From: a virus
Reading direction: 5' to 3' (one strand)
Length of the DNA stretch: 64,000 nucleotides
IMG/VR virus record: IMGVR_UViG_3300048579_000065
The notes beneath the pieces were generated by a model that made no database searches, was not told the DNA's origin, and worked only from the letters and a program-made list of their open reading frames with translations. The position numbers and the translations under genes are program-made. Below, piece after piece: positions 18,253-60,036 of this stretch (positions are counted from its first letter, which is position 1; every line of letters begins with the position of its first letter).

Positions 18253-18475
18253 ATGCAATTGAAAAATATAGGCTCAAACATGACTGAACTCCAATTAGGT
18301 GATAAAACTATACTATTTTCTTATTCTACTCCAGTTGCTTATTCGGAGAAAGGATCTTGCTACAAAACAGAAAAAAAAATGGAGCAATACAACCAGCAAA
18401 CACATTAACAAGTGGCTCGACGGCCGACATGCTGAAACAATTGATCAATCTAAGCTTGACTTTATTCAAAGCTAG
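18253..18475 (+). pseudogene. small phage protein frameshifted at an A9 run
   Basis: MQLKNIGSNMTELQLGD..ILFSYSTPVA; removing one A at 18371-18379 continues as TEKKWSNTTSKHINKWLDG. Confidence 0.65.
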
Positions 18476-23219: not shown

Positions 23220-23826
23220 TCACTCCCCTGGTAATGCTAAATCTAATAGTACTAAGTCATTAAAGTCTTTTACTTTCCTAATGTGATTTCTATACTGTTT
23301 GATTATGGAAGATTTACAATCAAACATATGATTGAAGTACTCAAGGTATGTAGCTGGCTGACCATCTATAAGATTAATTACCTCACATTTATGAAGAAAT
23401 TCTTCTAACCCAAATTTATTTATAAACTCAAGACCTCTTACCTTACATGTCTGATCCTCAAATCTGTTTAGTATTCTTACTTCTACTTCCCAGGCTTTAA
23501 TCTCTGCCTCCATAAACACCTTAATAAAATTGCCCCCTATCACCATCCATAACACTATTCCAAAGCTTAGCCTGGTGTTCTCTATCCTTTATATGTGTGA
23601 CCTCATGAGAGATGCAGGCCAATATGTCTAAAGGTTTCCAATCATGAGTACTAGACATATAGATATTATGAAAGTCTGTTACAGCCATGCCAGTACAATT
23701 TGTTTTAATGATTGGTATCTTATTCTCTTCAATATATCTTAAAGCTTCCTGAACCTCAGGAATCTTTGAAAAAATCTTGAGTTTACACTTAAATAAGTTT
23801 TCTAGATATTTTATGCACATTCCCAC
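23220..23826 (-). pseudogene. HExxH zincin-like protein split by a frameshift at a G5 run
   Basis: ISHEVTH in ORF 23521..23826; EAEIKAW in ORF 23220..23555; deleting one G (C5 on + at 23533-23537) fuses them. Confidence 0.55.
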
Positions 23827-24639: not shown

Positions 24640-25323
24640 CTAATATTTTTTTTGCTTCGGAGCCATGATCATGGCAGTAAACCAATATGGGTCCTCTTTG
24701 GGATAAGGAAACAAGTCGAAAGTCAGTGCTAATCTGAGACTAAGCATTGTAAAAAGTCCGATGATTGATACTTCGAGACAGAGTGACTTCTCACATGCTG
24801 AATAAAAGCTTTTGTTGGTTAAATCTATTTTTTCAAAACCAACAAAGTGGGAGCCTTCACCGAAACTAAGGCAGATTAGTCCTATAGAGACAGCCGCAAG
24901 CACTGCTAGAGAACGAGGATGTTTGTCCGCGTTCATTAATGATATTACAGTGGTGATGAACATTGCCATAACCGTATAACCACTAAAGTAATGAAAATTT
25001 GATGTAAACAATAAAAATGGCAGTAAAGGACAAATTACCTCGATGAAGAAATAGATTAGAGATGACTGAATGAACGCCAAAACTGTTCCGACCTTATTCG
25101 CTGGAAATTTATCTCTAGAGCGATTGCCATAATGATGAAAAGTTTGCTGGACGTAGGTAATGACAACGATGCAGCTTGCAATGGGTAAAAACCATTGAAG
25201 CCTAGTCCATAGTAGTGTGGTTCTATCAACCACTGTCTCTTTAGCTCTCTTAGCCTTAGCAAGCTCAAGTTGTTTACTCCAGTGATCTAAGTAATCCTCT
25301 CTATTCATTCCAATTTCTCTCAT
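24640..25323 (-). CDS. polytopic membrane protein (CpG-rich island)
   Basis: about five hydrophobic segments. Confidence 0.6.
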   Translation of the reverse strand: MREIGMNREDYLDHWSKQLELAKAKRAKETVVDRTTLLWTRLQWFLPIASCIVVITYVQQTFHHYGNRSRDKFPANKVGTVLAFIQSSLIYFFIEVICPLLPFLLFTSNFHYFSGYTVMAMFITTVISLMNADKHPRSLAVLAAVSIGLICLSFGEGSHFVGFEKIDLTNKSFYSACEKSLCLEVSIIGLFTMLSLRLALTFDLFPYPKEDPYWFTAMIMAPKQKKY

Positions 25324-28211: not shown

Positions 28212-28640
28212 TCACTTAACTTGAAACACAGTGTAGCCATGCTCTCTAAGATGTTGCACTATTTCAGGATTATCTTCTAGAACAAGAATGGCTCCATAAT
28301 CTTTTAGCCACTTATGATTATCTATTTCCCAAAGTTTGAAGTCTTTGGCAGGCCTTTCATCATCATCATGGGCTAAGATTAAATCAGAATAATGTATTTC
28401 CGTTTTCTTAAGCCAAGCTTCAGTAACTTCTCTATCAAACTCATGTCTAGCAGTAAGTATAACAATCATATTATTGTTATTATTTAGAGATTCAATTGTT
28501 TCACAAGTTTGCCAAATTAGCTTATCTGTCATCACAGCTTCCATGCTGTGAATATCATTTAAGTCTCCTGTTTCTTTGTATTTAGCCCATCTTGCATCAT
28601 TATTAGCCAAGGTGTTATCTAAGTCACAGAATACTAACAT
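28212..28640 (-). CDS. HAD-family phosphatase (PNKP 3'-phosphatase-like)
   Basis: DLDNTL motif I, LTAR motif II, RP..DFK, LEDN motif IV. Confidence 0.85.
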   Translation of the reverse strand: MLVFCDLDNTLANNDARWAKYKETGDLNDIHSMEAVMTDKLIWQTCETIESLNNNNNMIVILTARHEFDREVTEAWLKKTEIHYSDLILAHDDDERPAKDFKLWEIDNHKWLKDYGAILVLEDNPEIVQHLREHGYTVFQVK

Positions 28641-31102: not shown

Positions 31103-31315
31103 TTAAAGGTCTCTGCATTTTATCCTCTTAAGCTTTGCTGTACTCATATGATGATGTCTCATTTCTTCACCCAAATGACTGTCAGCATGTAATTCTAACA
31201 TTCTTCTATGTGGATTGCAAGCTACTTCATCATACAGACAGTCATCTGTATAGATTCTAAGATAGCACGTCCGGCTAGAACATACAAAGCATTCATCAGA
31301 TCTCTTATGCTTCAT
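31103..31315 (-). CDS. Cys/His-rich hypothetical protein
   Basis: CFVC..R.C...C..H. Confidence 0.5.
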   Translation of the reverse strand: MKHKRSDECFVCSSRTCYLRIYTDDCLYDEVACNPHRRMLELHADSHLGEEMRHHHMSTAKLKRIKCRDL

Positions 31316-32018
31316 GTACTAGATTAACCAAATCATTTATGTAATCATGGTCTTTGGAAAACTCAGGTATTTCATAGTCAGTACCATAATCTGAATCTGT
31401 CTTATAGGCAAATCCTCTTTTCTTCCATGTTGGCTCATGGTTCCAATTAAGATTATGTTCACTAAATAACTTTTCTTGTATTTGGCTATTGTTTAATCCT
31501 TGCATGTTCTTGTGCTTTATTAGGCTTTGTCCATACATTTGTATGCTATTTCTTGTAGCATCCTTTTGTCTCCACAGGAAATAGTTATTTACATCTTCTT
31601 TTGGTACATTAAACACTCTAGCATCAAAGAAAGCAACTTTTCTCTTAAGAGGTAAATAAATGTTAGCATAATTATTAAAGAAGCCTGTAGCCATGCTAGC
31701 AGCCACAGATGCTATTTTCTGTACATTACCATCGAACCATTGCTCAGTCTCAAGTTTCTTATAATCTATGAGTAGCAATGAGATTTCATCACTTTGGCTA
31801 TAACCAAATACACAGTTTTGTATCTCATCACAAAGAGCTTGTAAAGTTGTGCTCATAACAATCTTAAGTCTCTCATCATAAGGTTTCTCAAGACCTTTAG
31901 TCCAAGAATGAAATGCCTTACCATCAATTCTTATGACTACTGGTGTTCGGCGCTGTAACCATCCTTCAGTTACAAGCTCCATCCTTTTGAATCTATCACC
32001 CATTGAATCTTTAGTCAT
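31305..32018 (-). CDS. thg1: tRNA(His) guanylyltransferase / Thg1-like 3'-5' polymerase
   Basis: IRIDGKAFH, GYSQSDEISL, FDG..QKI.S..AS, FDARVF, YF.WRQ.DA.RNS. Confidence 0.93.
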   Translation of the reverse strand: MTKDSMGDRFKRMELVTEGWLQRRTPVVIRIDGKAFHSWTKGLEKPYDERLKIVMSTTLQALCDEIQNCVFGYSQSDEISLLLIDYKKLETEQWFDGNVQKIASVAASMATGFFNNYANIYLPLKRKVAFFDARVFNVPKEDVNNYFLWRQKDATRNSIQMYGQSLIKHKNMQGLNNSQIQEKLFSEHNLNWNHEPTWKKRGFAYKTDSDYGTDYEIPEFSKDHDYINDLVNLVHEA

Positions 32019-32707: not shown

Positions 32708-33020
32708 TTAACCATAAAGAAACTTTACAAACTCTTCTCTAATAGTTGACCACTTACTTTTAATCTCTTTGTTTACATCATGGTATTGTTCAACATTTCT
32801 CATATCAAAGGTTTGTAGAGCTTGTAGAACAAGGTTCCATACACATTTGGACCTCTTAGCCTAAAACTCTAGTGAATGCAACATTCTTAGCCCAAAGGTG
32901 TACTCCATAATTTCCTATATCACCTGTTCCGGTAGCATCGTTGGCTATTTCCATCCTACCAATAACAACAGACTTATCTTCATCACCTTTCGGCCATAAT
33001 TCAACCTTCACTACTAGCAT
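32708..33020 (-). pseudogene. frameshifted small phage gene (not in ORF track)
   Basis: MLVVKVELWPKGD...IANDATGTGDIGNY...TRVLG* continues in another frame as KRSKCVWNLVLQAL...; span is 3n+1. Confidence 0.4.
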
Positions 33021-33823
33021 TAGTAATTCCTCAACAGCAACTCTTTACCTTCATTTTGGCTAGAACCATAAGAGATTTGATACTCTTCAAACTTCCAATC
33101 CTTATACAGTTCTCTTATCTCTCTACAGTCATTATAGGTTATAAGAACCCTACTGTCAATCTTATTTAATCTCTCAGCCAATAGCTTATGGTCAAAATTC
33201 TTATGGTCTTTGTAAAGAGTTGGAGTCTTAAATCCTTCTGACTGGCAGTAGGGAGGATCACAGAAAATAAAATCTCTTCTATTAGGAAACATACTTATAT
33301 TTCGATAGTAGTCTTGACAGAAAATAGCTGGAGAATTGTCAGGATCAAAAACATTCTTGAAATTCAATAATTCATCTATTCCAGCTTTAGTGAATCTATC
33401 TCCACCATTAAACCCACCAAACATCCCTGTCCCACTAAAACTACACCTGTTTATTAGGTAGTACATAGCAGCTCTTTGAGCATGATAGGGCTTATAATGT
33501 TCTGATACTATTGCCTCTTTCACTCTATAGAAGAAAAGTTTGAGTTCTTCCCTTGTTAGATTTTCAAGCCACTCTCTACAAATATGAACAACATGTTCAT
33601 TAGTCTTTTCAGACCTTATTTGGTTAAAGAAATTAACTAATTGCTCTTCAAAATCACTGAAAACACAGAAACTTGGTTTCTTTTCTTTATAAACATTAAG
33701 TCCAACACATAATGATCCCATAAAAGGCTCTCTGTAAGTGTTAATATTATTTGGTATTAGAGGCATTATGTATTTTAGTGCTCTTGTTTTAGAGCCTATG
33801 TATCTTAATGGAGATTTTAACAT
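33020..33823 (-). CDS. DNA adenine methyltransferase (Dam/D12 class), orphan
   Basis: PLRYIGSK, YREPFMGS, AAMYYLINR..FSG, FIFCDPPY, ITYND, GKELL..NY. Confidence 0.9.
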   Translation of the reverse strand: MLKSPLRYIGSKTRALKYIMPLIPNNINTYREPFMGSLCVGLNVYKEKKPSFCVFSDFEEQLVNFFNQIRSEKTNEHVVHICREWLENLTREELKLFFYRVKEAIVSEHYKPYHAQRAAMYYLINRCSFSGTGMFGGFNGGDRFTKAGIDELLNFKNVFDPDNSPAIFCQDYYRNISMFPNRRDFIFCDPPYCQSEGFKTPTLYKDHKNFDHKLLAERLNKIDSRVLITYNDCREIRELYKDWKFEEYQISYGSSQNEGKELLLRNY

Positions 33824-34029: not shown

Positions 34030-34468
34030 TGATAAGATCCTTTATGGAGTTGAGTTTAGCCCTCATTGATTCATTCTCAGCCTTAATCCTAGACATAAAA
34101 GACTCATCATTTTGATTAAGGATGTGTTGTAGCAGGCCATTTGTATGATCTACACTAGACTGAACCATACCCCACAATTCACTTTTAGGTGTGTGGACAT
34201 CAAGCACCTTCAATACTTCTCTAAATAGAGATTTGGCTACTATCATCCTCCTGTCCCAATCTAATTCTTGAAGTTTGGCCAAAAAGTCTACATAAAATTC
34301 CTTTTCAATTAAATTTAATTGTTTAGGATTCACTTTCTTAGCTGTTTCAGGTATAGATTCTATTTTACTTGTATCTAGAAGGTCTTCAAGACTTCCATCA
34401 TTAACCAAAACCTCATTATTTTCATTTAGGATTGGTCCTATTGGTATCTGTTGGTTTTTTAGGAACAT
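34022..34468 (-). CDS. hypothetical protein
   Basis: ORF track. Confidence 0.6.
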   Translation of the reverse strand: MFLKNQQIPIGPILNENNEVLVNDGSLEDLLDTSKIESIPETAKKVNPKQLNLIEKEFYVDFLAKLQELDWDRRMIVAKSLFREVLKVLDVHTPKSELWGMVQSSVDHTNGLLQHILNQNDESFMSRIKAENESMRAKLNSIKDLIND

Positions 34469-35015
34469 TTTTTAATCTCTCCAGTATTTCTAGCCCGTAG
34501 GTGTTATGTTCTTTAACAAATCCGGCATTATACATGCTAAATCCTAACAACTTGTCACCTTTAGATTGAGTAAACCAATACTCAAGGTCTTTGTAAACTT
34601 GATTTACTTGACTCTCTCTATTATGCACGAATTTTAAGCATGTGTCAAGAGCCTTTGCTGAACTATGTCCTTCTTTTAATACTTCCTTATAGAGGTAAAG
34701 CATTATCTTTTGACCTAGCCCTATACTACATGATAGTAAAAACCTTACTGAAATATCAAGTTGGGCTAGGTTCTTATCACTATTGATTTCTTTCCACCTA
34801 GCAGGACTAAACCTAAACTTAGCCACATGTAGTGAATTTCCTTCAATCTTATTTAGATGCTTAAAGGCTTTGTTTAGCTCAACTTCATCTGTAATGTGCT
34901 CTCTAACCTTCCTACAATTAAGCCTATATTGCCTATTCTCATAAGAGTCAAAGTACATCTCACCTGATGATTCTTGAGCTATAACAGCATTAACTTCTTG
35001 TTCAGTTGGTTTCAA
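34422..35015 (-). CDS. hypothetical protein
   Basis: ORF track. Confidence 0.6.
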   Translation of the reverse strand: MKPTEQEVNAVIAQESSGEMYFDSYENRQYRLNCRKVREHITDEVELNKAFKHLNKIEGNSLHVAKFRFSPARWKEINSDKNLAQLDISVRFLLSCSIGLGQKIMLYLYKEVLKEGHSSAKALDTCLKFVHNRESQVNQVYKDLEYWFTQSKGDKLLGFSMYNAGFVKEHNTYGLEILERLKNVPKKPTDTNRTNPK

Positions 35016-47799: not shown

Positions 47800-48290
47800 T
47801 AGAAGATATACACCCTTGCTGACATTGCCTTGCCAAGATGAGCCTGAAGGCCTTGTGTAAAGATCCTGTCTGACTTATTAATCCAACCTTTGGTAGGAGT
47901 TCTAGCCTGAATGCTTGTAACGCCTGGAATTAATGGTAAAGAGCTTTTAGTACGTCTCATAAACCTTCCACGCTCATTATAACCATCATGCAAGATTGAA
48001 GCCAACTGGCTAGCTGGCTGAGGTTTACCATGACCAATATGGACATCATCTGTAACAATAACACTTACACTAAACCTAAGTTTATTAGCTTTTCTGATTT
48101 GACTATTCCTGAGTTCTAGTGTATCAATTGGTACAACAGACTTGGACACATCTACACCATACTGTGAGGCTAAATCTAGAGCATCATTGGCTACTCTCTG
48201 AAATATGTGTTCCAAGCCTAAAGCCTTAGCCCCAGTAATCAGGGCTTGACTTTTGGGGCTAATTTTAATATTATGGAGGGCTAATGGCAT
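47799..48290 (-). CDS. HK97 gp10-like tail completion protein
   Basis: VVPIDTLELRNS...LASILHDGY...P..GWI pattern. Confidence 0.55.
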   Translation of the reverse strand: MPLALHNIKISPKSQALITGAKALGLEHIFQRVANDALDLASQYGVDVSKSVVPIDTLELRNSQIRKANKLRFSVSVIVTDDVHIGHGKPQPASQLASILHDGYNERGRFMRRTKSSLPLIPGVTSIQARTPTKGWINKSDRIFTQGLQAHLGKAMSARVYIF

Positions 48291-48302
48291 AGTAGCCTAA
48301 GT

Positions 48303-48641
48303 TTATCTAGATTTTTTCTTAAACACAGTCATTAAGGTACGTATTAAAGCCCAGTGAGATACATCTAAAGGTAAAGCCTTAAGTTCGGTAGGATCAACAT
48401 TAAGCTTCTTTATATATTTTTCCTTAAGATAGTAAATATCATCAATAGGAGAGTTGTAGAAGTCTGTTAGTGTCCAGCCTTTATAGTATTCAGATAAAAA
48501 CTCATAAAGATCCAGAAGATACTTGTCATATTCGTCAAGCTCATATTCAGGGTCTGGTTCCTTACAAGCATTAGGATCAAACTTAAGATCCTCAAGTGGA
48601 ATGTAATTAGTATAGACCTTAATGACTTCATCATTAGCCAT
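48303..48641 (-). CDS. tail assembly chaperone-like protein
   Basis: YKGWTLTDFYNSP..DIYYL. Confidence 0.45.
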   Translation of the reverse strand: MANDEVIKVYTNYIPLEDLKFDPNACKEPDPEYELDEYDKYLLDLYEFLSEYYKGWTLTDFYNSPIDDIYYLKEKYIKKLNVDPTELKALPLDVSHWALIRTLMTVFKKKSR

Positions 48642-48657
48642 GAGTACCTATACACAC

Positions 48658-48933
48658 TTATCTTACATAAGATACTTTAAGACAGAAACTCTCTGTAAAC
48701 AGACCCTTAAAGTGCTTTGGGTAAAGAGTTAATTTGTTTTTGTAGATGTCATCAGAGATATCAACAAACTCATTAATATCCTGAGTTACTAAGGAATTTT
48801 TAACCTTTATAGTTTCTGCTTTCTGAGTTAGAATTTGGGCTAACACAGCCTTACAATCATATGGAAGGTCTAATACTACAGGTGGATCATCTTTAGCTAT
48901 TCTTTTACTTGAACTATAGAGTTGATTTAACAT
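48658..48933 (-). CDS. hypothetical protein (start MLNQL)
   Basis: ATG one base after the upstream stop. Confidence 0.5.
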   Translation of the reverse strand: MLNQLYSSSKRIAKDDPPVVLDLPYDCKAVLAQILTQKAETIKVKNSLVTQDINEFVDISDDIYKNKLTLYPKHFKGLFTESFCLKVSYVR

Positions 48934-48934
48934 A

Positions 48935-49402
48935 TTATGTCTCAAAATCGTTAGTAGGGAATTTACATTTCTTAAGAATCTTAACAATTAGCCCAAGAGC
49001 ATCATCTAGGCACACCTTATCAAAAGACTCATCAGTAACCTTATTGCCTTGACCAAATTCATCAGCCAATGCTGCTAGTACATCTTGATAATACTTAAGG
49101 TTTTCATCATGAGTAGTAGGCGCTAGAACTCTGTTTAGATAATCTTCATCCTTCTCACCTTCATTCCTAACAGCAGATTGGCCTAGATACTCTAGATACC
49201 TTGTAGTCCAATCCTCACCTGACTCATTAGGAAGTCTCTTGACCTTAGCATAAGGTGAATATTTCTTTTGTATCTCAAGTACTCTATTACGTATAATCTT
49301 AGTCTTACCTACTGTAATCTCTTTAGGATTGATAATCAGCCGGTGCTCACCAAGATTAACAAACAAGTCTGAACCTTGGACTAAATCTATTTGTTGTACC
49401 AT
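48935..49402 (-). CDS. tail assembly chaperone, putative
   Basis: acidic helical protein after the tube genes. Confidence 0.5.
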   Translation of the reverse strand: MVQQIDLVQGSDLFVNLGEHRLIINPKEITVGKTKIIRNRVLEIQKKYSPYAKVKRLPNESGEDWTTRYLEYLGQSAVRNEGEKDEDYLNRVLAPTTHDENLKYYQDVLAALADEFGQGNKVTDESFDKVCLDDALGLIVKILKKCKFPTNDFET

Positions 49403-49441
49403 TATACTTAAACCTTAAATAACTCTTCAGACTTATTATAT

Positions 49442-49948
49442 CTAAAGTGGACTTCTAGATCCTAAAATTGTTCCAAGTTCTGTGGCTGTGCCCCACCTTA
49501 CTATTGTATTAGACAAATCAGGACTTTCAGCCTTAAACTTATTTACAATTACAGTAGGATTTTCTTTATCATAGTTAGGCGATAAGTCTATAACTGGAGC
49601 TATACCATCAAACAACCAGCATAGACCCCCTTGAGTATTAATCAGTAAGATAGTGTACCTTCTATTAGGATCAGGAGTAGCATTGAGGTTAGTCTCGGCT
49701 ATGTCTAGCCCCCGGCTAATCAAAAATGGTATCTGAGAGTCAGTATAGTATGATAGTTGCCAATCTAACTTCTCATTAGCAGTCTGAACCCAGAGGTCTA
49801 GGCCATTTATGTATTCGGTAGGCACTGTGACTATTGGTTGGCAAGTACCTGTACGAATGGTAGGGATTGGAACAAGAGTTGATGTGGCTCCAAAGAGCCC
49901 TACGAACAGTCGGCCAGGTGCTCCTGCAATAGTAGGAAATGTAGACAA
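49442..49948 (-). CDS. tail tube-like protein 2
   Basis: G.PGRLFVG...; tube-like beta pattern; synteny. Confidence 0.5.
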   Translation of the reverse strand: MSTFPTIAGAPGRLFVGLFGATSTLVPIPTIRTGTCQPIVTVPTEYINGLDLWVQTANEKLDWQLSYYTDSQIPFLISRGLDIAETNLNATPDPNRRYTILLINTQGGLCWLFDGIAPVIDLSPNYDKENPTVIVNKFKAESPDLSNTIVRWGTATELGTILGSRSPL

Positions 49949-49994
49949 TTTTGGCTAAACCTTTACTTATTATGTTAAAAGTTTATCAATAACT

Positions 49995-50186
49995 AAAAAA
50001 CCACCCAAGTCTTAGTTGGATGGGATACATCATAATACTACCATAAAAGAAAGAGCCTGCCAACAAGAAGAATTATTAAGGATTGACAGGCTATTATAGG
50101 CCGTAACCTATAGAGCATTCAGCCTTAATCTGAATGGGGATGATTTAATTATAACAAAAAGCCTACCAATCCTAAAACTGGTAGGC
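49995..50186 (-). terminator. three tandem intrinsic terminators
   Basis: stems 50161-50186, 50054-50092 and 50001-50023, each with a U-rich tail on the minus strand; the mismatches in two stems become G-U pairs only in minus-strand RNA. Confidence 0.75.
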
Positions 50187-50215
50187 AGATGTTGGGCTAA
50201 GTACAGCTTAATTCT

Positions 50216-51235
50216 TTAATTCTCACGAATTACAGAGCTTACAGCATGGACACCTTGTAGCAAGGTATCAGCATTTACTGTTTCAAACACATAGGACAAG
50301 GTTGGAGGTTCTGATTTACCCCACTGGCTTGTACCACCTGTCTGATTCTGTCTAAGAGCAGCATACATGTAGAGTACTTCTACAGCTTTGTTTTGATTGA
50401 TGGGGAATAGTAGCTTAAGTGGCCAGTTACCTGTGTTGATTGCACCTGAAGCTTGATAAGCTCTAAGTGTAACTTCAGAGGTCTTTCCACCTGAGGTTGT
50501 GTATCTAACCCATTCACCAGCGCTGCTAGCAACGAAGTTTTGTGGATCATTTTGGAGAATCTTAAATGACACTTTAAGACCACGAGTTACAGCCAATTGA
50601 TAACTAGTAGCCGTTGCTGGCTTGTATTGGATCTGTTCAGTAGCATCCTCAAGAGCCAGACCTGGATCTTCCATAGTCCCAGCGCTAACAAAGGCTGTAC
50701 CAGTAATTCCAGTTCTCTTAGTCAACACAGAGTCTGTGATGGCTGAATTGGAAAGAGTAGAGTATGGCTCACTAATAGCATCTGTTTGTACATCAGTAAG
50801 AAGTACAGTACTCCAGATGGTTTGTGTGGAATCAGGAGGAAGAATTGAATGTAGGTAGAAGTTTCCACTATTCTTCTTAAGCCAAATCATAATACCAGCA
50901 GAATAGTCTACATCAGCAGGCCAAGAAATAGTATTAACTTCAATCCTAATGAATGGAAGCAAGGATGTAGGTTGCAGGAAGCCAGAGGCTGGAGAAGCAA
51001 CAGTAGCCGCAAATCCTTGACTTGTCGGATTATGTCCCATGGGCATCAAACAGACTTGATAAGTAGCAGTCTGGTCTAGTTGTCCACGTCTGTCATTGAT
51101 ATTAAAGAACTGCTGTTCTACTAAGACAGTTGAGGCTGATATTGACAGTGAAGCAAAACTAGGTATAGTTTTACTAGGAACCTCGTAGGGTATGTAAGGG
51201 AGCACCGCACCCGATCTATAGAACGTGGTTGACAT
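50216..51235 (-). CDS. major tail (tube) protein with N-terminal accessory domain
   Basis: C-half G.MEDPG..LE...E........V....KVSFKILQ; followed by strong terminators. Confidence 0.65.
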   Translation of the reverse strand: MSTTFYRSGAVLPYIPYEVPSKTIPSFASLSISASTVLVEQQFFNINDRRGQLDQTATYQVCLMPMGHNPTSQGFAATVASPASGFLQPTSLLPFIRIEVNTISWPADVDYSAGIMIWLKKNSGNFYLHSILPPDSTQTIWSTVLLTDVQTDAISEPYSTLSNSAITDSVLTKRTGITGTAFVSAGTMEDPGLALEDATEQIQYKPATATSYQLAVTRGLKVSFKILQNDPQNFVASSAGEWVRYTTSGGKTSEVTLRAYQASGAINTGNWPLKLLFPINQNKAVEVLYMYAALRQNQTGGTSQWGKSEPPTLSYVFETVNADTLLQGVHAVSSVIREN

Positions 51236-51294
51236 ACCTAGAAGTCTCCTAAGTTAAAACTTTATTTGGTTTACTTCCTAAGTTTATCTAAGAA

Positions 51295-51906
51295 TTAAAA
51301 TGGTACATGCTTCCACTGTTTTCCTTCAATAATCCTTGTGGCCGTTGTCCTACTTACATTAAACAATTCTCCTAACCTAGTTCTAGTAAACCCTCCAGTC
51401 TTAAACATCTTTCTCATTTCTATAACATCTTTCTCTGTAAGCTTAGAACAGGACACAGCACTACCAACAACCCTTCTACCTTTGTTAGCCATATCATCCA
51501 TATTGTCTTGGTGAGTGCCTAGAAACAGGTGCTCTGGATTACAGCATCTCATATTGTCACAATGATGACAAACAAACAAACCATCATTTATAGGACCATT
51601 AAATAAGATGTATGAGACTCTATAGGCCAGATCATCTTTTCCATCTAATGCTAATAATGAGCCACGTTTAGATTTTCCAGTCCAGTTCCAGCAACCCCTA
51701 TCATCCTTTACAGACTCATTTAATACCCTAGACTTGACATATTCAGGGCTAGACCTTCTAAACTTACCTCTACAAGATAAATTACAGAAGTGGTGTTTAT
51801 AGCCCTTCTTTAAGGCTTTCCTGTATAGCCCACCATTCTTCTTAAACTCCTTACCACAAGAGTCACAGATTAGCAAAAGTACTTCTTTCTTAGCACGTTT
51901 TCTCAT
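51295..51906 (-). CDS. HNH homing endonuclease (free-standing)
   Basis: CDSCGKEF; CWNWTG; VCHHCDN..CCNPEHLFLGT..DN. Confidence 0.85.
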   Translation of the reverse strand: MRKRAKKEVLLLICDSCGKEFKKNGGLYRKALKKGYKHHFCNLSCRGKFRRSSPEYVKSRVLNESVKDDRGCWNWTGKSKRGSLLALDGKDDLAYRVSYILFNGPINDGLFVCHHCDNMRCCNPEHLFLGTHQDNMDDMANKGRRVVGSAVSCSKLTEKDVIEMRKMFKTGGFTRTRLGELFNVSRTTATRIIEGKQWKHVPF

Positions 51907-51977
51907 TAAAGCTCTCCAGCAAATCCAACTTATCCTACAATACCAAAATGATGTTTTGGATAAGGGAAGTACTGGTT

Positions 51978-52568
51978 TTAGACAAATGTTAGATAATATG
52001 AGATATTGAATGTGGAGTAGCCAGCCGAGGCTATTGGTAGATAGGTACACTCAAACTGACATCTAAATGGTGATTGGTAGAAGCCGGAGGCTGTAGGAGG
52101 AATGATTAAATCAGCAAAGTCCACTGCTAAGCCCCCTCCAGTACGATTTTCTCTACATAGGTAGTCTAGTAAATAAGTTACACGATTTAGCACCTGATCT
52201 ACTAAGAATATGTTCTTATCAGTTACTACATTCTTTACTAAGATAGCTATTTTGGTAGTTCTAGCGCCAGTGATGTCTGATCTATTACCATTTCCTAGTG
52301 TAGCCGACTCATATAATTCCGTTGGCTGGATTACAATACAAGGTCCACTAGGAATTTGGGCCTGCCCATAGTCTGGGATCACTTTACTGGCAAGGTCTGA
52401 GCTAGCACAGCCTAGTAGTGTATACAAAGGTGTATATAAGAAAGGTGGGACATTAGAGCTACTAGCAAATACAGTAGTATTAGCATTGTAGATGTCTAAA
52501 GGATCTAACTGAATGCTATTAGCATCTAGGGCTAAATTGTATGCTATTACATCGCCTATAGTACTCAA
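51978..52568 (-). CDS. tail terminator-like neck protein
   Basis: synteny; PCIVIQP, VL..V..LLD. Confidence 0.5.
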   Translation of the reverse strand: MSTIGDVIAYNLALDANSIQLDPLDIYNANTTVFASSSNVPPFLYTPLYTLLGCASSDLASKVIPDYGQAQIPSGPCIVIQPTELYESATLGNGNRSDITGARTTKIAILVKNVVTDKNIFLVDQVLNRVTYLLDYLCRENRTGGGLAVDFADLIIPPTASGFYQSPFRCQFECTYLPIASAGYSTFNISYYLTFV

Positions 52569-53198
52569 TTACTGAATCTCCGACAGCTTAACAGTGAGTT
52601 CAGACATATTACCTACATCAGTAGATTGTTGGATGACCCATACTGTATTAGGATTATCTGTCTTATCATAGAATAGTAGCCCTTCAGTGTCATAGCCGGA
52701 GGTTCTTAAGTCTCTGGTATACATTATAATCTGATTAGTTGGAGTACCATCAGAGGCTAAAACCTTGTTGTGGATGGGTTTGTCACTGTAATTTACAGTC
52801 GTAGCATACTCAAAATATATGTTGTCATATAGTAAGGTTGAACCATTGTATATAGCCCCCAACCGGCTAGTCCTAAAAGCTGTCATCTCTTCAAAAGGAG
52901 ACTTGCTAATAAAGGTTAGTCTAGGAGTGTCAGAGTCAGCACGAAGAGGTAAGATAATGTCTCCTGGATTTATACCATCATACTCACCATGTACACAATA
53001 ATAAGAGGCATTAGGAAGTGGAGTCTGGACTAGGCTTGGTCCTCTTACTTCTGTCTTATATTTGCGCTGAGCATATTTTAACACTGGAGTCTGATCTTGT
53101 GCTGTGTAATCAACTGTTGAAATACTTACAGGTTGACCAAATATTAAGCCAAACCTTCTCTTTTCAAAGTTAAATCCCTTCTCATACATGTTAGGCAT
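52569..53198 (-). CDS. head closure or neck protein, putative
   Basis: synteny. Confidence 0.45.
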   Translation of the reverse strand: MPNMYEKGFNFEKRRFGLIFGQPVSISTVDYTAQDQTPVLKYAQRKYKTEVRGPSLVQTPLPNASYYCVHGEYDGINPGDIILPLRADSDTPRLTFISKSPFEEMTAFRTSRLGAIYNGSTLLYDNIYFEYATTVNYSDKPIHNKVLASDGTPTNQIIMYTRDLRTSGYDTEGLLFYDKTDNPNTVWVIQQSTDVGNMSELTVKLSEIQ

Positions 53199-53199
53199 A

Positions 53200-54150
53200 T
53201 TATTGACCTAAGAAGTATTGAGTCAGACTTGAGATTATATTTTCCCAAATTATGTTTCCCTCAAAGTATTCTATTGTGTAAGAACCACCTGATTGTCTCT
53301 TGACTCCTGGTAAGTATTGACCCTGGACAATTGGGATCACCTGAACTATACTATTTACAATATCTTGAGGTATGGTTCCAAAACCAGCAACATACACTAC
53401 TATAACATCATTGAAAGGTGAAAAGGGTTCAGGCCAGTCAACCATATTTTGTGCATACTTGTATACTAGCCAGCCGGTGTCCGGCTCCATATTATAGTTC
53501 TGTTTAACTGTACTGAAAGTTACAGCACTAAATAAGTTAAAGGCTATTGGTTGTCTTACTTGTGGAGAAAGGAAGTCAACTACAGGTGTCTTTTTGAGTC
53601 TTATACCATACTCCCATGAGAATGTCCCTTCCTGGAAATATGTACTGAGTACTATCTTATTATTAGTGAATCCTATTAGTTTAGCCGAGGCTAGTTCTAG
53701 TAGCTTAGCAACCTGTGCATTGGTAAGATCATTACCATTATTATCAGCCAGGTCTAACCCTGTTATTGTGGCTATCTCTCTACATTGGGGTACTGTAACT
53801 AATGTAGGATTGTTACCATTGTTGATAATATTGCCCATTGTTGAGCTAGCACTTAATACAAAAGAGCTTTGCCCCCATACACATATACAATGGTCGGTGC
53901 TAGTCACATTATATTGCTGTACTGATGGTAGGTCTACATAGTAGGGGGCTGAATTATTACTATAATCCATAGTAAGAGCTTGATTATTTTGTATTAGCCA
54001 GGTCAGTAGTTGTACAGCAGTCTTGTTGGCTAGTTCTTTCTCATCTTCTAGCCCGGTTAGACCTGATACAGCATATGTAAGAGCATTGCTAAAGGTTCTA
54101 TCATTGATCGTTACAGCAAGTCCACCACCTGAGCTAGCCCCTGGAGTCAT
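53200..54150 (-). CDS. head-tail connector (adaptor) protein with N-terminal extension
   Basis: LLELAS..LI.FT...; V.VVYVAGF.TIP.DI...IV. Confidence 0.65.
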   Translation of the reverse strand: MTPGASSGGGLAVTINDRTFSNALTYAVSGLTGLEDEKELANKTAVQLLTWLIQNNQALTMDYSNNSAPYYVDLPSVQQYNVTSTDHCICVWGQSSFVLSASSTMGNIINNGNNPTLVTVPQCREIATITGLDLADNNGNDLTNAQVAKLLELASAKLIGFTNNKIVLSTYFQEGTFSWEYGIRLKKTPVVDFLSPQVRQPIAFNLFSAVTFSTVKQNYNMEPDTGWLVYKYAQNMVDWPEPFSPFNDVIVVYVAGFGTIPQDIVNSIVQVIPIVQGQYLPGVKRQSGGSYTIEYFEGNIIWENIISSLTQYFLGQ

Positions 54151-54223
54151 AATGCTTAAATAATTTTGGGTATTGAAAATCAGGGAAGTCTAGACCTTTG
54201 GTTGCTAGCCTAATTTTACCTTC

Positions 54224-55014
54224 TTATACTAGGTTAAGTCTTTGCTGGCTAAGACTACAATACTCTTCTGACATGTCTATACCAATGTAGTTTCTTTGGT
54301 TCTTCTTAGCCATTTTTAATGTAGTTCCAGCCCCACACATTGGATCTAGCACAAGATCTCCTGGATTAGACCAACTTAATATATGATCCTCAGCTAATTT
54401 TTCAGGAAAGGTTGCCGGATGTATATAGCCCAAATTATCTGAATGATGTTTACCATATCCACAAGAGTATTCCCAAATATTAAATCTAAAGCCAAACTCC
54501 TTAATTACTCTACCCAATTGATTTCTTTCTGAACTGGTTTTAATTAGGCTACCATCCTTCTGTCTGCAAGTTGAGCCCTTTATAGGATTTCCTGTGTTTT
54601 TATTTTTTCTATCCTGTAAGGGATTGAAAGTTTTAGGACTTCCTTTGCTGAGGACAAACATGTACTCAAAAATATTGTAATACCGTGTTTTATCAGGATA
54701 TGGTGTGCTTAGTTTATTATAAATCATTGTGTCATGGAGGTTTAGCCCCAAATCCTTAAAATGCAGTGCTTGTCTAAAGCTTGTACCTGTCTCTGAGCCT
54801 TTGATTGTAGCATCACCTACTACCCAAACTATAACCCCCCCACCTTCAGGACTCTATAAAGCTCGGCTGCTATACCTTCAAAATCAAAAGAATAGCCTTT
54901 ATAGTCTCTAAGATTGTCATATGGGGGGCTAGTAACAACCAAATCAATAGACTTGTCATCAAAAGTCTTCATAACATCTATACAATTACCTTGAAGTACT
55001 TTATTAATTTCCAT
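54224..55014 (-). pseudogene. beta-class N4/N6 DNA methyltransferase split at a G7 run
   Basis: DLVVTSPPY in the 5' ORF; HPATFPE..A...I...SN.GD.VLDPMCG.GTT in the 3' ORF; adding one G at 54835-54841 gives LKVGGVIVWVVGDATIKGSETGTSF. Confidence 0.88.
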
Positions 55015-55015
55015 C

Positions 55016-55234
55016 TTACATCACCATCCACATTTTAGCTTCAGTATTCCATTTTAGATTGTCAAGTGGAAAGGTGGGATTGTCATAGTAATTTATAGAT
55101 CCTACAATCGTAGCAACCTTTCTTAGCCACCTAGCACTATTGTAAATCCTAGAGATATAGCCTGTTCCACCTTTGGAACCATAGACCTTATCTTTGACTT
55201 CTGGTATGTACTCTATTCTAGTGACTTCTTTCAT
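55016..55234 (-). CDS. hypothetical protein
   Basis: ORF track. Confidence 0.5.
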   Translation of the reverse strand: MKEVTRIEYIPEVKDKVYGSKGGTGYISRIYNSARWLRKVATIVGSINYYDNPTFPLDNLKWNTEAKMWMVM

Positions 55235-55530
55235 ACCTTCTCCACAGACACTATTCTTATATCCCCATCCTTAAAGAAAACAACATCTGAGTAAGGTGTT
55301 TCATCTTCATTTGTACATAAAGTAATGTGGTCATACAGTGAGCCGGATTCCTCAACATTTATTAACCATATACCATCCTCAACCCCATCAATGATCTTAC
55401 CATAGTGAGTGTTTAGTACAGTCCCATCACTCATTATGATCCTCAAATCTGTGTCATAACAGTCTATTGAGTCACTAATTTGTCCTGTAAACTGTATTAC
55501 ATCATCGGAATAGCCAAAAACCTTAGTCAT
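55231..55530 (-). CDS. hypothetical protein
   Basis: KVFGYSDD pattern. Confidence 0.6.
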   Translation of the reverse strand: MTKVFGYSDDVIQFTGQISDSIDCYDTDLRIIMSDGTVLNTHYGKIIDGVEDGIWLINVEESGSLYDHITLCTNEDETPYSDVVFFKDGDIRIVSVEKV

Positions 55531-55819
55531 AATCTAATATTTCCTCTGCTAATGGGTAGTAAAGTTTAGCCTTAGCTAGTTGTTGGCTAGCAAACTGTTG
55601 GAAAGTCCTACAATTGTTCTGCTTATAGACTCTATCTCTATTTGCATGGAAGTAGCCCCGCAATGGTCCTAGAATACATACAGGACAATACTTTACAGCA
55701 GCATTCATCTTATCCTTTAGACTTATAGGCTTTGTAACCTCGGTGCTAGCCCATTCAACATAATTAGGAGTAAGACCAACTCCATTACAGCAGCTAGCAA
55801 CCTCTCTACTTGTCTCCAC
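55523..55819 (-). CDS. Cys-containing hypothetical protein
   Basis: ORF track. Confidence 0.5.
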   Translation of the reverse strand: METSREVASCCNGVGLTPNYVEWASTEVTKPISLKDKMNAAVKYCPVCILGPLRGYFHANRDRVYKQNNCRTFQQFASQQLAKAKLYYPLAEEILDYD

Positions 55820-55877
55820 TTTGCTATACTATCCTTATAGGGGTTTACAGGTCTAATCATACAACAAAGGTGATCTA

Positions 55878-56963
55878 GTGTCAAGTACTTATGTAGTAGG
55901 AAAGCCAAAAATTGTTAATAAGGAATTATTCCTAAAAAGAGCTTCTGAGATTCTAGATTCAGGCTCTTGGGGTAATAACTCTACATATGTTTTAGCCCTT
56001 GAAGATTATATTAAAGAGTACTTAGGCTGTAAACATGTAATAGCTGTAAACTCAGCAACGACGGGGCTAGAATTAGCAATACAAACTCTTAAGGAGTTTG
56101 AGCTATTTGAGAATCCTACTTGTCTTATACCTTCCTTTACCTTCACTGCTACAGCATCAGCCTTAGTGAGAAATGGAATAAAGATTGAGTTTGGAGACAT
56201 TGATAATAATTTCTGCCTAAATAAGTCTAATACTGACAACATTACCGCTGACTTCTTTCTTCCAGTTAATCTGTTTGGAGAAACATGCCATCCTGATATA
56301 CAAGATGACAGCAGGAGTCTACTATTTGATCAGGCTCATTCAATTGGGGTCTTTAATGAAAGAACTGGTAAGTATTTAGGGGCTGACACTGAACTTAATT
56401 GTTTCAGTCTTCACTCAACTAAGATGGTTTCAGCCGGAGAGTGTGGCTTCATCACTACTTCTAGAGATGATTATGCTGAATATCTGAAAGAGCTTAGAAA
56501 CTTTGGCTATGACAGTAATTCAGGAGCTAGAGAAGGTGATGTTATTCACATAGGTACTAATGGTAAAATCTCTGAAATCACTGCTGCATTGGCACTTACC
56601 CAGCTTGAAAATATACAAGAGATTCAGGAACACTACTTTAATGTTCACCAAGAGTATGAAAGATTGTTACCAAACTTAATTAAGCAAAAGAATAATATGT
56701 TTAGTAACTGGTCTTATGTTGTTGTTCAGGTGGATGCTAGAAAAAGAGATAGTATTATTAGCAGAATGAACCAAGATGGTATTTTTCCTAGAACTTATTT
56801 TAAGCCTTTACATCACATGTCAGTATATAAAGAAAACATTAATCTTCCAATGACTAACAAAATAAGTTCTGAAATTATGTGTCTACCAACAGGTTTAACT
56901 ATTAGTTTAGAAGATGTGCAGTACATATCAAGGAGTTTAGCCAATGCAATCAAGGAAGGTTAA
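55878..56963 (+). CDS. DegT/DnrJ/EryC1/StrS PLP-dependent sugar aminotransferase
   Basis: VNSATTGL, PSFTF.AT, DQAHS.G, FSLHSTK (PLP Lys), GECG...T, GTNGKISE. Confidence 0.93.
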   Translation: MSSTYVVGKPKIVNKELFLKRASEILDSGSWGNNSTYVLALEDYIKEYLGCKHVIAVNSATTGLELAIQTLKEFELFENPTCLIPSFTFTATASALVRNGIKIEFGDIDNNFCLNKSNTDNITADFFLPVNLFGETCHPDIQDDSRSLLFDQAHSIGVFNERTGKYLGADTELNCFSLHSTKMVSAGECGFITTSRDDYAEYLKELRNFGYDSNSGAREGDVIHIGTNGKISEITAALALTQLENIQEIQEHYFNVHQEYERLLPNLIKQKNNMFSNWSYVVVQVDARKRDSIISRMNQDGIFPRTYFKPLHHMSVYKENINLPMTNKISSEIMCLPTGLTISLEDVQYISRSLANAIKEG

Positions 56964-57198
56964 TAAATCAGCTGAGGCAATGGAAGAGTCTCAAGATTTG
57001 GGGCTAGACCGGATGTCTGAATATGCTCAATGCATGAAAGTACTGATAGGCACTATTCATGATCTAAAGGAAGTAGGAGTTAGCCAATCGGTAGCTGTCA
57101 CTGTAGCTCAAGAGGCTATGGATTCTTTCCTCAACTATAGAGCTTTAATTGCTGCTCCACAAAGTTTGCTAGGCATGATAGAAGATGATCAGCATTAA
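56944..57198 (+). CDS. hypothetical protein
   Basis: co-oriented with the DegT gene. Confidence 0.5.
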   Translation: MQSRKVNKSAEAMEESQDLGLDRMSEYAQCMKVLIGTIHDLKEVGVSQSVAVTVAQEAMDSFLNYRALIAAPQSLLGMIEDDQH

Positions 57199-57377
57199 CG
57201 TAAAACCCTTAACTTAGCCTTCTCAAAATCATAGATCATAATTCTAATATTAGACAGGGCTAACATTAACTCTTCTATACTAGAATCATCATTACACATA
57301 TCTACTAGCGAGCCAATGTCTCTTAGTAGCTTTTTAGCAGCCCAAACTTCTTGGTAATCATTTCTTATGTTAGACAA
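57195..57377 (-). CDS. hypothetical protein
   Basis: ORF track. Confidence 0.5.
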   Translation of the reverse strand: MSNIRNDYQEVWAAKKLLRDIGSLVDMCNDDSSIEELMLALSNIRIMIYDFEKAKLRVLR

Positions 57378-57736
57378 TTTAGATCCTTTAATTCTTTGAT
57401 AACTTCATATTTCATCAAAGATACAAAATTCCCGCCACAATTCACATTATTATTTAATGTTGTTAAAAAACATATAAAGTAAATCTTCCTATTATGAAGC
57501 ACTACAAACCTTCTCTTATCTCCTGTAGGATCATCAACATAATTTACAAGGAAAACTCCATTATCATAATCATACAAAGTTTTAGGTTTTTGAGCCTTCT
57601 TTGCAGCTAAGAGCCTATTTAGACCTGCAATTTTATCCTCTAAATTAGCTATTTCATCTTCTAATGAAACCTTTTCTGGCTTAGCACTGCCAATAGACTC
57701 ATAGTAGCTTTCTGGACTATCTGTATCTCCATACAT
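57365..57736 (-). CDS. hypothetical protein
   Basis: ORF track. Confidence 0.55.
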   Translation of the reverse strand: MYGDTDSPESYYESIGSAKPEKVSLEDEIANLEDKIAGLNRLLAAKKAQKPKTLYDYDNGVFLVNYVDDPTGDKRRFVVLHNRKIYFICFLTTLNNNVNCGGNFVSLMKYEVIKELKDLNCLT

Positions 57737-58104
57737 TATTTATTCAATCTCCTTTCATCAGCAATACATTCTAACATAGCCATGGCTAGTTTTTCACTAG
57801 CATCCTTATAATCACAGTCAAAGGTTATAGCATGGTTGGCTATCTGAACAGTAAATAGTGGCCTGACTCCTGATGTAAACCTGACTATACCATTATGGTT
57901 CTTTCTAAACTTCTCTATAAGTTCAAAGGTTAGGTCTAGCCCGTCTGTATAATGCTTAGGAAACCAACCATTCTTGGCTTTCCATCTAGTAGTCTTAAAA
58001 CAAGCATGAAGTTTTAGCATGTCAGCCTTAATCTTACAAACCTTGAGGGCTAGATTAAGATTAAGTATGTTGAATCCTTTGGTTACTTTGTTCTTTATGC
58101 TCAA
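57736..58104 (-). CDS. hypothetical protein
   Basis: ORF track. Confidence 0.55.
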   Translation of the reverse strand: MSIKNKVTKGFNILNLNLALKVCKIKADMLKLHACFKTTRWKAKNGWFPKHYTDGLDLTFELIEKFRKNHNGIVRFTSGVRPLFTVQIANHAITFDCDYKDASEKLAMAMLECIADERRLNK

Positions 58105-58187
58105 TGTCTGCTACCTGTTCTTGTTTAGTTTGCTTTTGTTTAGAGTTTCCTCTAGGACCATCACCTGGCAGATAACCATTTAAGGTT

Positions 58188-58400
58188 TTAATCTTTCTCT
58201 TCTTTCTTTTGTGATTCATTTACTGCTTTCTCCACTTCATCTAGTGACCAACTACAATCATTTAGCGCGGCTGATAACACTATCTCACCAACTCTATCAG
58301 GATTGGTTCCTAGAGCCTTAGACATTATTACAAGCTTATCATACAATTTTTCATCAATATTAAGTACTAGCATTGCCATTCCATCCTCTATAGGTTCCAT
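58188..58400 (-). CDS. ribbon-helix-helix-like small protein
   Basis: LVLNIDEKLYDKL..MSKALG. Confidence 0.35.
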   Translation of the reverse strand: MEPIEDGMAMLVLNIDEKLYDKLVIMSKALGTNPDRVGEIVLSAALNDCSWSLDEVEKAVNESQKKEEKD

Positions 58401-58409
58401 AATTACTCC

Positions 58410-59003
58410 TTATTTGATTGCATCTACATAAAATGAAAACTTAGTTCTAACAGGGTCCATACTATCAATAGAAGGATCAGGCCAAGACTTGTTTACTTGG
58501 CTAAACCCAACAAACTTGGCTATAGCTTCAAACTTATCTTGATCCCAATTACTCTTATGTTCGTTACAAGGCTCAGGATCATATTGATAGTTAGACCATT
58601 CTACAATATCAATGAAAGTTCTGTATCTAGCATCTGAGAAGTCATTCCAATTGAATATCTCATAGAACTTCCAATCTTTCTCTACATAAGCTCTATAGAG
58701 TTGAAAGAAGTCAGGCAGGCAAACTCTAAATACTCCTCCTGGAACCATTTTGCTAAAGCATTCCTGCATTAGTTTAATAGCATCGGGGGTCTTTATGTGC
58801 TCCAAAACATGAGATGAATATACATAAGATATATTTTCTACTTGTTCTGGTAAACCATTCTTAACAAAATCCCACATTAAATATTCTTCCTTATCTTGTA
58901 AGTCAAGAATATCAAGGTTTAGGAAGCCTTCCTTAAGTTGTGTGTGGCAACCTAAGTGTACTTTATTCCATCTTCTATTTAAGTCTGTCATTATCCCTCT
59001 CAT
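58410..59003 (-). CDS. class I SAM-dependent methyltransferase (glycan-cluster type)
   Basis: VHLGC....EGFLNLD, YSSHVLEHI, M.PGG.FRV.LPD. Confidence 0.85.
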   Translation of the reverse strand: MRGIMTDLNRRWNKVHLGCHTQLKEGFLNLDILDLQDKEEYLMWDFVKNGLPEQVENISYVYSSHVLEHIKTPDAIKLMQECFSKMVPGGVFRVCLPDFFQLYRAYVEKDWKFYEIFNWNDFSDARYRTFIDIVEWSNYQYDPEPCNEHKSNWDQDKFEAIAKFVGFSQVNKSWPDPSIDSMDPVRTKFSFYVDAIK

Positions 59004-59181
59004 CTATTATCTCATACTTACAAGTCTTATCATCTAGCGCGTCAAAGTCTTCAGGATGTATTAGCACATGACCAAAGGCATGTGAAACTGCTCCTTTAGT
59101 AGCCTTTTCAGTAACAAGTATTGCTCTTATTCCTATACCACAATCATTATAGGATTTAATTATGTCTTGTAGTTTAGTCAT
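58975..59181 (-). CDS. hypothetical protein
   Basis: ORF track. Confidence 0.5.
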   Translation of the reverse strand: MTKLQDIIKSYNDCGIGIRAILVTEKATKGAVSHAFGHVLIHPEDFDALDDKTCKYEIIDERDNDRLK

Positions 59182-59773
59182 CTTTCTTTACTGGTTTATC
59201 CAAGTGTTTAAGTGCTTGTAGTGTATCTTTCCATAATCCAGCCGGGGCTAGCTCTGGATCTACCCATATCCTCCAATCTTCACCATCATGTGTAGTTATG
59301 ACCCATTCTCCATAACAATTCTTAGCAATCTCACTTCCATTGTGGAATCTACTTAATATGTCTCCAATCTGCTCCAGTCTAGATTGCTTATCTGATTTAA
59401 GTCTTTTAATCTCAGCCCTGAGTTTTAAGATCTCTCCATGCTGAGCCTTCCTAATTAGTTTACCACGTTCATAATAGTGTCTAATCTTAAATAGTAAATC
59501 TCTAGTCTCAAAGTAAAGACCTCTATAAAAATCACTGTAATTTAATGTGTGCTTTCTACTTAGTCCACCATTACTATACAAGCATTTTATGGCATTTGCT
59601 ACACCATGATAATAACTACCTTTTCTATCCTTACACCAACCATGTTTAGGATCACCTATATAAAAATAACCATGAGTTTTCTTTACAAGCTTTGCTAATT
59701 CCTCAGCCTCATCATTAGTAATTTTTTGAGGTTTAGGCTTGAACTTATTTAACAGGTTATCAAGTATTGTCAT
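59174..59773 (-). CDS. hypothetical protein
   Basis: ORF track. Confidence 0.6.
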   Translation of the reverse strand: MTILDNLLNKFKPKPQKITNDEAEELAKLVKKTHGYFYIGDPKHGWCKDRKGSYYHGVANAIKCLYSNGGLSRKHTLNYSDFYRGLYFETRDLLFKIRHYYERGKLIRKAQHGEILKLRAEIKRLKSDKQSRLEQIGDILSRFHNGSEIAKNCYGEWVITTHDGEDWRIWVDPELAPAGLWKDTLQALKHLDKPVKKDD

Positions 59774-60036
59774 GAGATTACATCCATTAATTCAGTGAAT
59801 TGCTTATTTTGGCTAGTAATGAAATCAACAATAGCACCTCTAGTATCTGAGTTCATAATAAACTTACCATTTAAGGTTTCAATTCTATACCTTGACCAAA
59901 GTGCAGCAATTGAGAAATTAAAACCTCTAAACTCTATTCTACCTAAACAGTATGTAGGATCTGATCCTGATTTAAGAGACATTTCCCATCTCTTATCCAA
60001 TTCACTAAGTACATTATCTAGTGTGTTATATTCCAT
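59770..60036 (-). CDS. hypothetical protein
   Basis: ORF track. Confidence 0.55.
   Translation of the reverse strand: MEYNTLDNVLSELDKRWEMSLKSGSDPTYCLGRIEFRGFNFSIAALWSRYRIETLNGKFIMNSDTRGAIVDFITSQNKQFTELMDVIS

Follow-up and report, generated by a model that had tools for sequence, protein, structure and literature searches.

The minus-strand reading frames at 54224-55014 of the DNA analysed here (the window; 64,000 nucleotides of the IMG/VR virus record IMGVR_UViG_3300048579_000065) are confirmed as a single gene for a PF01555 beta-class DNA methyltransferase, broken exactly at a run of seven G residues. The reading rated most likely, though tentatively, is that the record miscounts this homopolymer and that the true tract is G8; the full 263-aa enzyme would then be made by ordinary decoding. 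A real seven-base allele, arising by replication slippage and switching the gene off, is a serious possibility, and the evidence on both is weighed below together with two much less probable explanations.

The window belongs to a novel, uncultured wastewater phage with a GC content of 36.7%. Its genes include a tape-measure-like gene, several HNH endonucleases, a Thg1-like enzyme and a polynucleotide kinase, and a sugar-modification cassette adjoins the methyltransferase gene. A second, intact DNA methyltransferase gene of the Dam/D12 class is found at 33020-33823 on the minus strand (PF02086, E 1.4e-27; TIGR00571 below cut-off); thus, the phage carries at least two DNA methyltransferase genes. 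Also on the minus strand, the polynucleotide kinase (phrog_415, 28212-28640) lies near a tRNA-His guanylyltransferase-like gene (phrog_4717, E 3.2e-86, 31305-32018), and these two genes may form an RNA repair module. tRNA and Rfam scans of the window found nothing, including no tRNA gene. Megablast of 40000-64000 against cultured phages gave no match, and blastn of the methyltransferase gene returned eight records with 60-80% identity over parts of the gene only. The best protein identity was 69% in IMG/VR, 62% in the JGI metagenomes among the matches listed, and 56% in GTDB genomes, where matches spread across many phyla and archaea and gave no hint of the host.

The two pieces of the gene occupy different frames of the minus strand. 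The N piece (54829-55014; 61 codons plus TAG) contains motif IV, with DLVVTSPPY at residues 24-32 and TSPPY itself at residues 28-32. The C frame (54224-54853; open for 209 codons) contains the target-recognition part and, near its C end, the SAM motif I, DPMCGAGTT. In PF01555 (N6_N4_Mtase) the C piece covers profile positions 46-220 of 221 with 126 bits (E 2.8e-36; curated cut-off 26.7); the N piece alone covers positions 1-47 with 21.8 bits, below that cut-off, and abuts the C piece at position 46. In phrog_67 the N piece falls on profile positions 121-189 and the C piece on 188-344. Because the placement is contiguous in both profiles, the pieces are one gene cut at the G7 run, which spans 54835-54841 (C7 on the plus strand) and encodes an invariant Gly-Gly. 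No other G/C run in the window has a length of 7.

At the break the minus strand reads AAG GTG GGG GGG TTA TAG, as the earlier note had reported from GTG onward. The N frame runs from the ATG at 55014 through 60 sense codons ending in AAG GTG GGG GGG, followed by TTA and the TAG stop at 54831-54829. The C frame, open from 54853 to its stop at 54224, reads GGG-VIVWVVGDATIKGSETG... and shares 25 bases around the run with the N frame. Adding a G, or slipping back by one base, fuses 60 residues of the first frame to 203 of the second, giving the 263-aa protein that the earlier note had proposed; profile placement and alignment with the closest intact relative, P0003, agree on this. The restored junction, KVGGVIVWVVGD, is identical to that of P0003, and the conserved KVGGVIVW is present. 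Motif IV lies N-terminal to motif I, the beta permutation, and both motifs fall in conserved alignment columns, so the further claim of a beta-class enzyme with catalytic and SAM-binding motifs intact also stands. Reading the TAG through as a residue was rejected because the conserved sequence lies in the -1 frame.

Judged by its sequence, the encoded protein is an ordinary member of the PF01555/phrog_67 family. It resembles the small orphan beta-class methyltransferases of phages in motif order, length (~260 aa) and conserved columns, and differs from them in that its gene, instead of being one uninterrupted frame, is interrupted by one base at the G7 run. Solved relatives include M.MboIIA (1g60), CcrM (6pbd), M.PvuII (1boo) and the rotifer N4CMT (8s9m). 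Every match to the NCBIfam profiles was far below cut-off, with no equivalog of CcrM or of any named enzyme. The motif IV of the N4-cytosine enzyme N4CMT is likewise SPPY and that of CcrM is DPPY, as described in the available part of PMC10406627, and S/DPPY/F is quoted for N4-cytosine enzymes generally in the available text of PMC6712171. Given its SPPY motif IV, the enzyme may possibly target N4-cytosine and not N6-adenine; since the motif is shared with N4CMT and S/DPPY/F applies across the class, an "adenine-specific" label should not be assumed. No restriction enzyme was recognisable among the genes neighbouring the methyltransferase, which bears out its earlier description as an orphan. 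From its family, the product is expected to serve in anti-restriction methylation: a working-grade, optional methyltransferase of this type would methylate the phage DNA and block cutting by a host restriction enzyme.

Apart from the one base, the gene is in good order. Of 101 alignment columns conserved to 90% or more among 120 homologues, the two pieces together keep 99, and both departures are conservative (F to L and S to A). The intact P0003 scores the same, and departures across the family have a median of 1.5. With a single defect in 263 codons and nearly all conserved columns kept, the break is not old. P0003 is a protein of 253 aa in one open frame, 88% identical to the C piece and 94% identical to the N piece.

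The site was checked in 240 relatives (80 IMG/VR, 80 metagenome and 80 prokaryote genome loci). Both parts of the protein are in one frame in 233 of these, and none is split at the site of the G run. The remaining seven are without a usable N part because of a contig end, a neighbouring second gene, a 5'-truncated remnant or the lack of a hit. Four loci considered as split relatives were rejected: in L102 and L131 the N-piece hits lie elsewhere in the locus, L216 is a remnant that has lost its 5' end, and none of the frames upstream of it contains an SPPY part, and L241 is interrupted where its contig stops. Three others (L025, L028, L138) have no match to the N piece. Only one relative of the 240, L026, has at least seven Gs at the site; it reads CCG GGG GGG GTT, a G8 run, in frame. 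Six prokaryote genome loci have G6. Thus, G8 in frame is a viable state, but the relatives have not conserved the tract. In the IMG/VR relative L070 there is an in-frame TGA (FRVTKD*GVVV) where all other relatives have the first Gly of the Gly-Gly, which suggests that this phage reads TGA as glycine (NCBI table 25).

By composition, the G7 run is not beyond chance; its position, exactly at the break in a conserved gene, is not chance. G/C runs of lengths 5, 6 and 7 number 18, 5 and 1 in the window against 18.1, 3.4 and 0.6 expected, and for runs of at least seven, 0.76 are expected and one is observed. In first-order Markov simulations, 219 of 300 sequences hold a G/C run of at least seven and 65 of 300 a run of at least eight. 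The tract is mildly odd by codon use: GGG is the rarest glycine codon (80 of 822, 9.7%), and only one of the 60 other Gly-Gly pairs is encoded GGG-GGG. A 19-base inverted repeat over the run (54828-54846 with 55071-55089, 79% complementary) was set aside as a functional element; its partner lies 224 bases upstream, in the preceding gene, and the match is probably chance.

The methyltransferase gene, the fourth of a leftward gene string with its ATG one base after the stop of the preceding gene, is an optional cassette cut precisely to the ORF, carried by one strain but not by a relative. In a contig (depth 6.4) of a related phage from another wastewater run, X1, window positions 54182 and 55014 are joined with only 37 letters in between. 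The final 15 of them are those of window 54207-54221, so the relative keeps the spacer and is without exactly 792 bases, the methyltransferase ORF. The phage can thus do without the gene, and an OFF allele, if real, would be tolerated. The 792-base segment has TCTTA at both edges: the left copy (54222-54226) contains the methyltransferase stop codon on the minus strand, and the right copy (55014-55018) contains the stop codon of the upstream gene at 55016-55234. An integron-type cassette bounded by attC sites was rejected: the 86-nt spacer that follows the gene folds about as well as shuffled versions of itself (z -0.11 and +0.74 for the two strands), showing no attC-like hairpin at the border, and there is no flanking repeat beyond the 5-base TCTTA. 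The GC content of the gene, 36.3%, is close to that of the window and gives no sign of recent foreign origin.

Other segments of the region also vary between the related contigs. Contigs of X1 and of a second run, X2, skip 630 bases at 51293-51922, with 11 other letters in their place, removing most of the HNH endonuclease gene at 51295-52050; this looks like a presence/absence difference of a homing endonuclease between related phages. Contigs of both runs also skip 277 bases at 48658-48934, the portion of ORF 48658-48987 that is free of overlap; this is another optional segment, located among the tail genes upstream of the tape measure gene. At 57755-60000 the window is almost identical to X1 and X2 contigs (four substitutions and no gaps in ~2.2 kb), and on either side the sequences diverge by several percent or give way to other sequence, a pattern that points to mosaic exchange between wastewater phages around this segment.

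Public records bear on the tract itself as follows. The exact N piece is on record once, probably from the same record, and so does not count as independent support. Seven public runs were listed, as contigs only, the best of them sharing 0.30 of the words of the region. Over 48001-60000, among the matches listed for four of these runs (X1, X2, X7 and X4), no contig is near-identical across 54835-54841. Short pieces from X1 and X2 that match inside the gene run on into unlike sequence and hence come from other methyltransferases; X7 probably holds a diverged piece of ~150 nt over 54798-54950, according to depth arithmetic.

A second gene in the window is broken in the same manner, which fits homopolymer miscounting and real slippage alike. 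The run A9 at 18371-18379, the longest A/T run of the window, splits a small phrog_5643 gene (18253-18475, plus strand), whose halves at 18253-18405 and 18299-18472 fall on profile positions 1-45 and 40-73 of 79. The run is one A above the in-frame length, A8; loss of one A, or slippage by RNA polymerase, would restore the frame. Both IMG/VR relatives found (L081 and L082) are intact at the site, where neither has a long A run. Long ORFs of the window contain six A7/T7 runs, every one of them in frame; an A8 near the end of one ORF could not be judged. At 17 other ORF junctions, namely 34422-34471 (A6), 24640-24739 (A8), 23521-23588 (G5) and 14 more, there was no homology evidence of a split gene, and in nearly all of them a start codon lies at or next to the upstream stop. 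The earlier note had counted two other homopolymer frameshifts in the window; one of these, the A9, is borne out and a second was not found among the 17 junctions. Its caution that technical error is a real alternative is strengthened by the finding of another gene broken at the longest A run.

Several lines of evidence favour a miscount of the record. Each of the two breaks falls at the run that is longest for its base type (A9 and G7), with the six A7/T7 runs in frame, and breakage that depends on run length is the pattern expected of homopolymer miscalls. The relatives of both genes are intact, no methyltransferase being split at the site and both of the phrog_5643 genes being whole, and the two broken genes are otherwise pristine; in the methyltransferase 99 of 101 conserved columns survive, the restored junction equals that of P0003, and the G8 of L026 is in frame. 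The A9 of the phrog_5643 gene would likewise be a miscount of A8. Against this, the two errors would have opposite signs, with an A added in one case and a G dropped in the other, and the assembly is not generally ridden with indels, as seen from the gap-free 57755-60000 segment and the six A7/T7 runs. G8 and A8 are, moreover, tracts on which real replication readily slips, and with the gene absent from the X1 relative an OFF allele would be tolerable. It is also quite conceivable that the DNA is truly G7, an OFF allele of an optional methyltransferase produced by replication slippage. Slippage at such tracts far outpaces the build-up of point mutations, so that an OFF allele free of other damage fits a recent or reversible slip: there is no decay besides the one base, and the closest relative, P0003, is ON. 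The tract is spelled GGG-GGG despite the rarity of this codon and of such pairs, and the assembly is clean elsewhere. There is precedent in the poly-G switching of a restriction-modification methyltransferase in Campylobacter, as given in the available part of PMC4889913. On the other side, no variation in tract length was seen, there being among the matches listed no near-identical contig that spans the tract; the one relative with at least seven Gs, like all the others, is not split; G/C runs are not enriched in the window; and the unrelated gene broken at A9 would need a separate explanation.

If the slipped allele is real, it could be an evolved bet-hedging switch, the reading favoured in the earlier note but considered unlikely here, or otherwise a recent, tolerated loss. 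High-rate reversion of G7 to G8 could plausibly leave a minority of ON genomes that survive a restricting host, making the tract a mutational ON/OFF contingency locus. As in contingency genes, a one-unit change in a repeat within the ORF toggles the frame (G7 out, G8 in); the tract is neither kept in the relatives nor over-represented. A tract of G7/G8 is also short for a contingency locus of the kind found in Campylobacter and Neisseria. The switch is held to this low rating because none of its positive marks was found, namely length variation, a conserved tract or enrichment of tracts. It is thus doubtful that the phage has a true contingency locus with a population of G7 (OFF) and G8 (ON) genomes, a minority pre-methylated and the majority spared the cost of the enzyme. 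Were it so, pre-methylation would counter the restriction system of only some hosts, and the A9 would either act as a second switch or be bypassed by slippage of RNA polymerase. Still less probable is programmed recoding, in which the DNA is G7 and -1 ribosomal slippage, or addition of a G by RNA polymerase, supplies a low and fixed amount of the full-length enzyme. The earlier note had pointed out that G GGG GGG matches the slippery pattern X XXY YYZ for -1 frameshifting. The heptamer does fit in the zero frame, which stops two codons later, and a -1 shift yields the conserved sequence; a programmed site is nevertheless poorly supported. The 100 nt after the run have a minimum free energy of -17.4 kcal/mol against a shuffle mean of -20.8 (z +1.04), with 171 of 200 shuffles folding at least as well, so there is no downstream stimulatory structure. 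None of the 240 relatives has the two-frame arrangement, P0003 being a single ORF, and G-rich heptamers whose A-site codon is GGG are not known to shift efficiently. Restoration of disrupted ORFs with slippage-prone runs at the mRNA level is known, although the slippage described in the available part of that source concerns runs of 9 A or T and not G7 (Baranov 2005, PMC1088944). An old, decaying pseudogene from a horizontally acquired cassette is disfavoured and is the least credible of the explanations: the gene is optional in the lineage and out of frame, but one defect in 263 codons, a conserved-column score equal to that of the intact P0003 and a GC content matching the window all speak against it.

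The interrupted gene can be compared with three known kinds of slippage. In the poly-G methyltransferase genes of Campylobacter and Helicobacter, e.g., Cj0031 (PMC4889913, in the part available), a G run in the ORF is likewise toggled by one base; the tracts of that type vary between cells and strains and are many per genome, whereas here there is a single tract of chance-like length in a phage. The transcriptional slippage described at runs of 9 A or T in Thermus dnaX, Shigella mxiE and IS elements also restores a disrupted ORF by a one-base change in the mRNA (Baranov 2005, PMC1088944, in the part available). That comparison applies best to the A9 at 18371-18379; the methyltransferase run is G7, not 9 A or T, and neither the G7 nor the A9 is conserved in relatives. 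The third kind is found in phages themselves, and like the case considered here would involve slippage at G runs that makes phenotypic variants. The polyG tracts of Campylobacter phages are reportedly hypermutable (Sorensen et al. 2021 are said to have described them), generating phenotypic diversity and evasion of bacterial resistance, and they reportedly lie in receptor-binding genes. The present tract is in a methyltransferase gene, and no heterogeneity in its length was seen.

The two longest homopolymers of the record are exactly where genes break. If the record is a miscount, single frameshifts at runs of 7-9 in contigs of uncultured phages should not be taken as biology without reads. 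If a G7/G8 mixture is real, it would be a reason against annotating such genes as pseudogenes, and a hypermutable tract hedging anti-restriction methylation would offer phages a simple route to host-range flexibility. Bet-hedging by slippage would then not be confined to the receptor-binding genes of Campylobacter phages; it would also cover anti-restriction methylation, and this in a wastewater phage unrelated to them.
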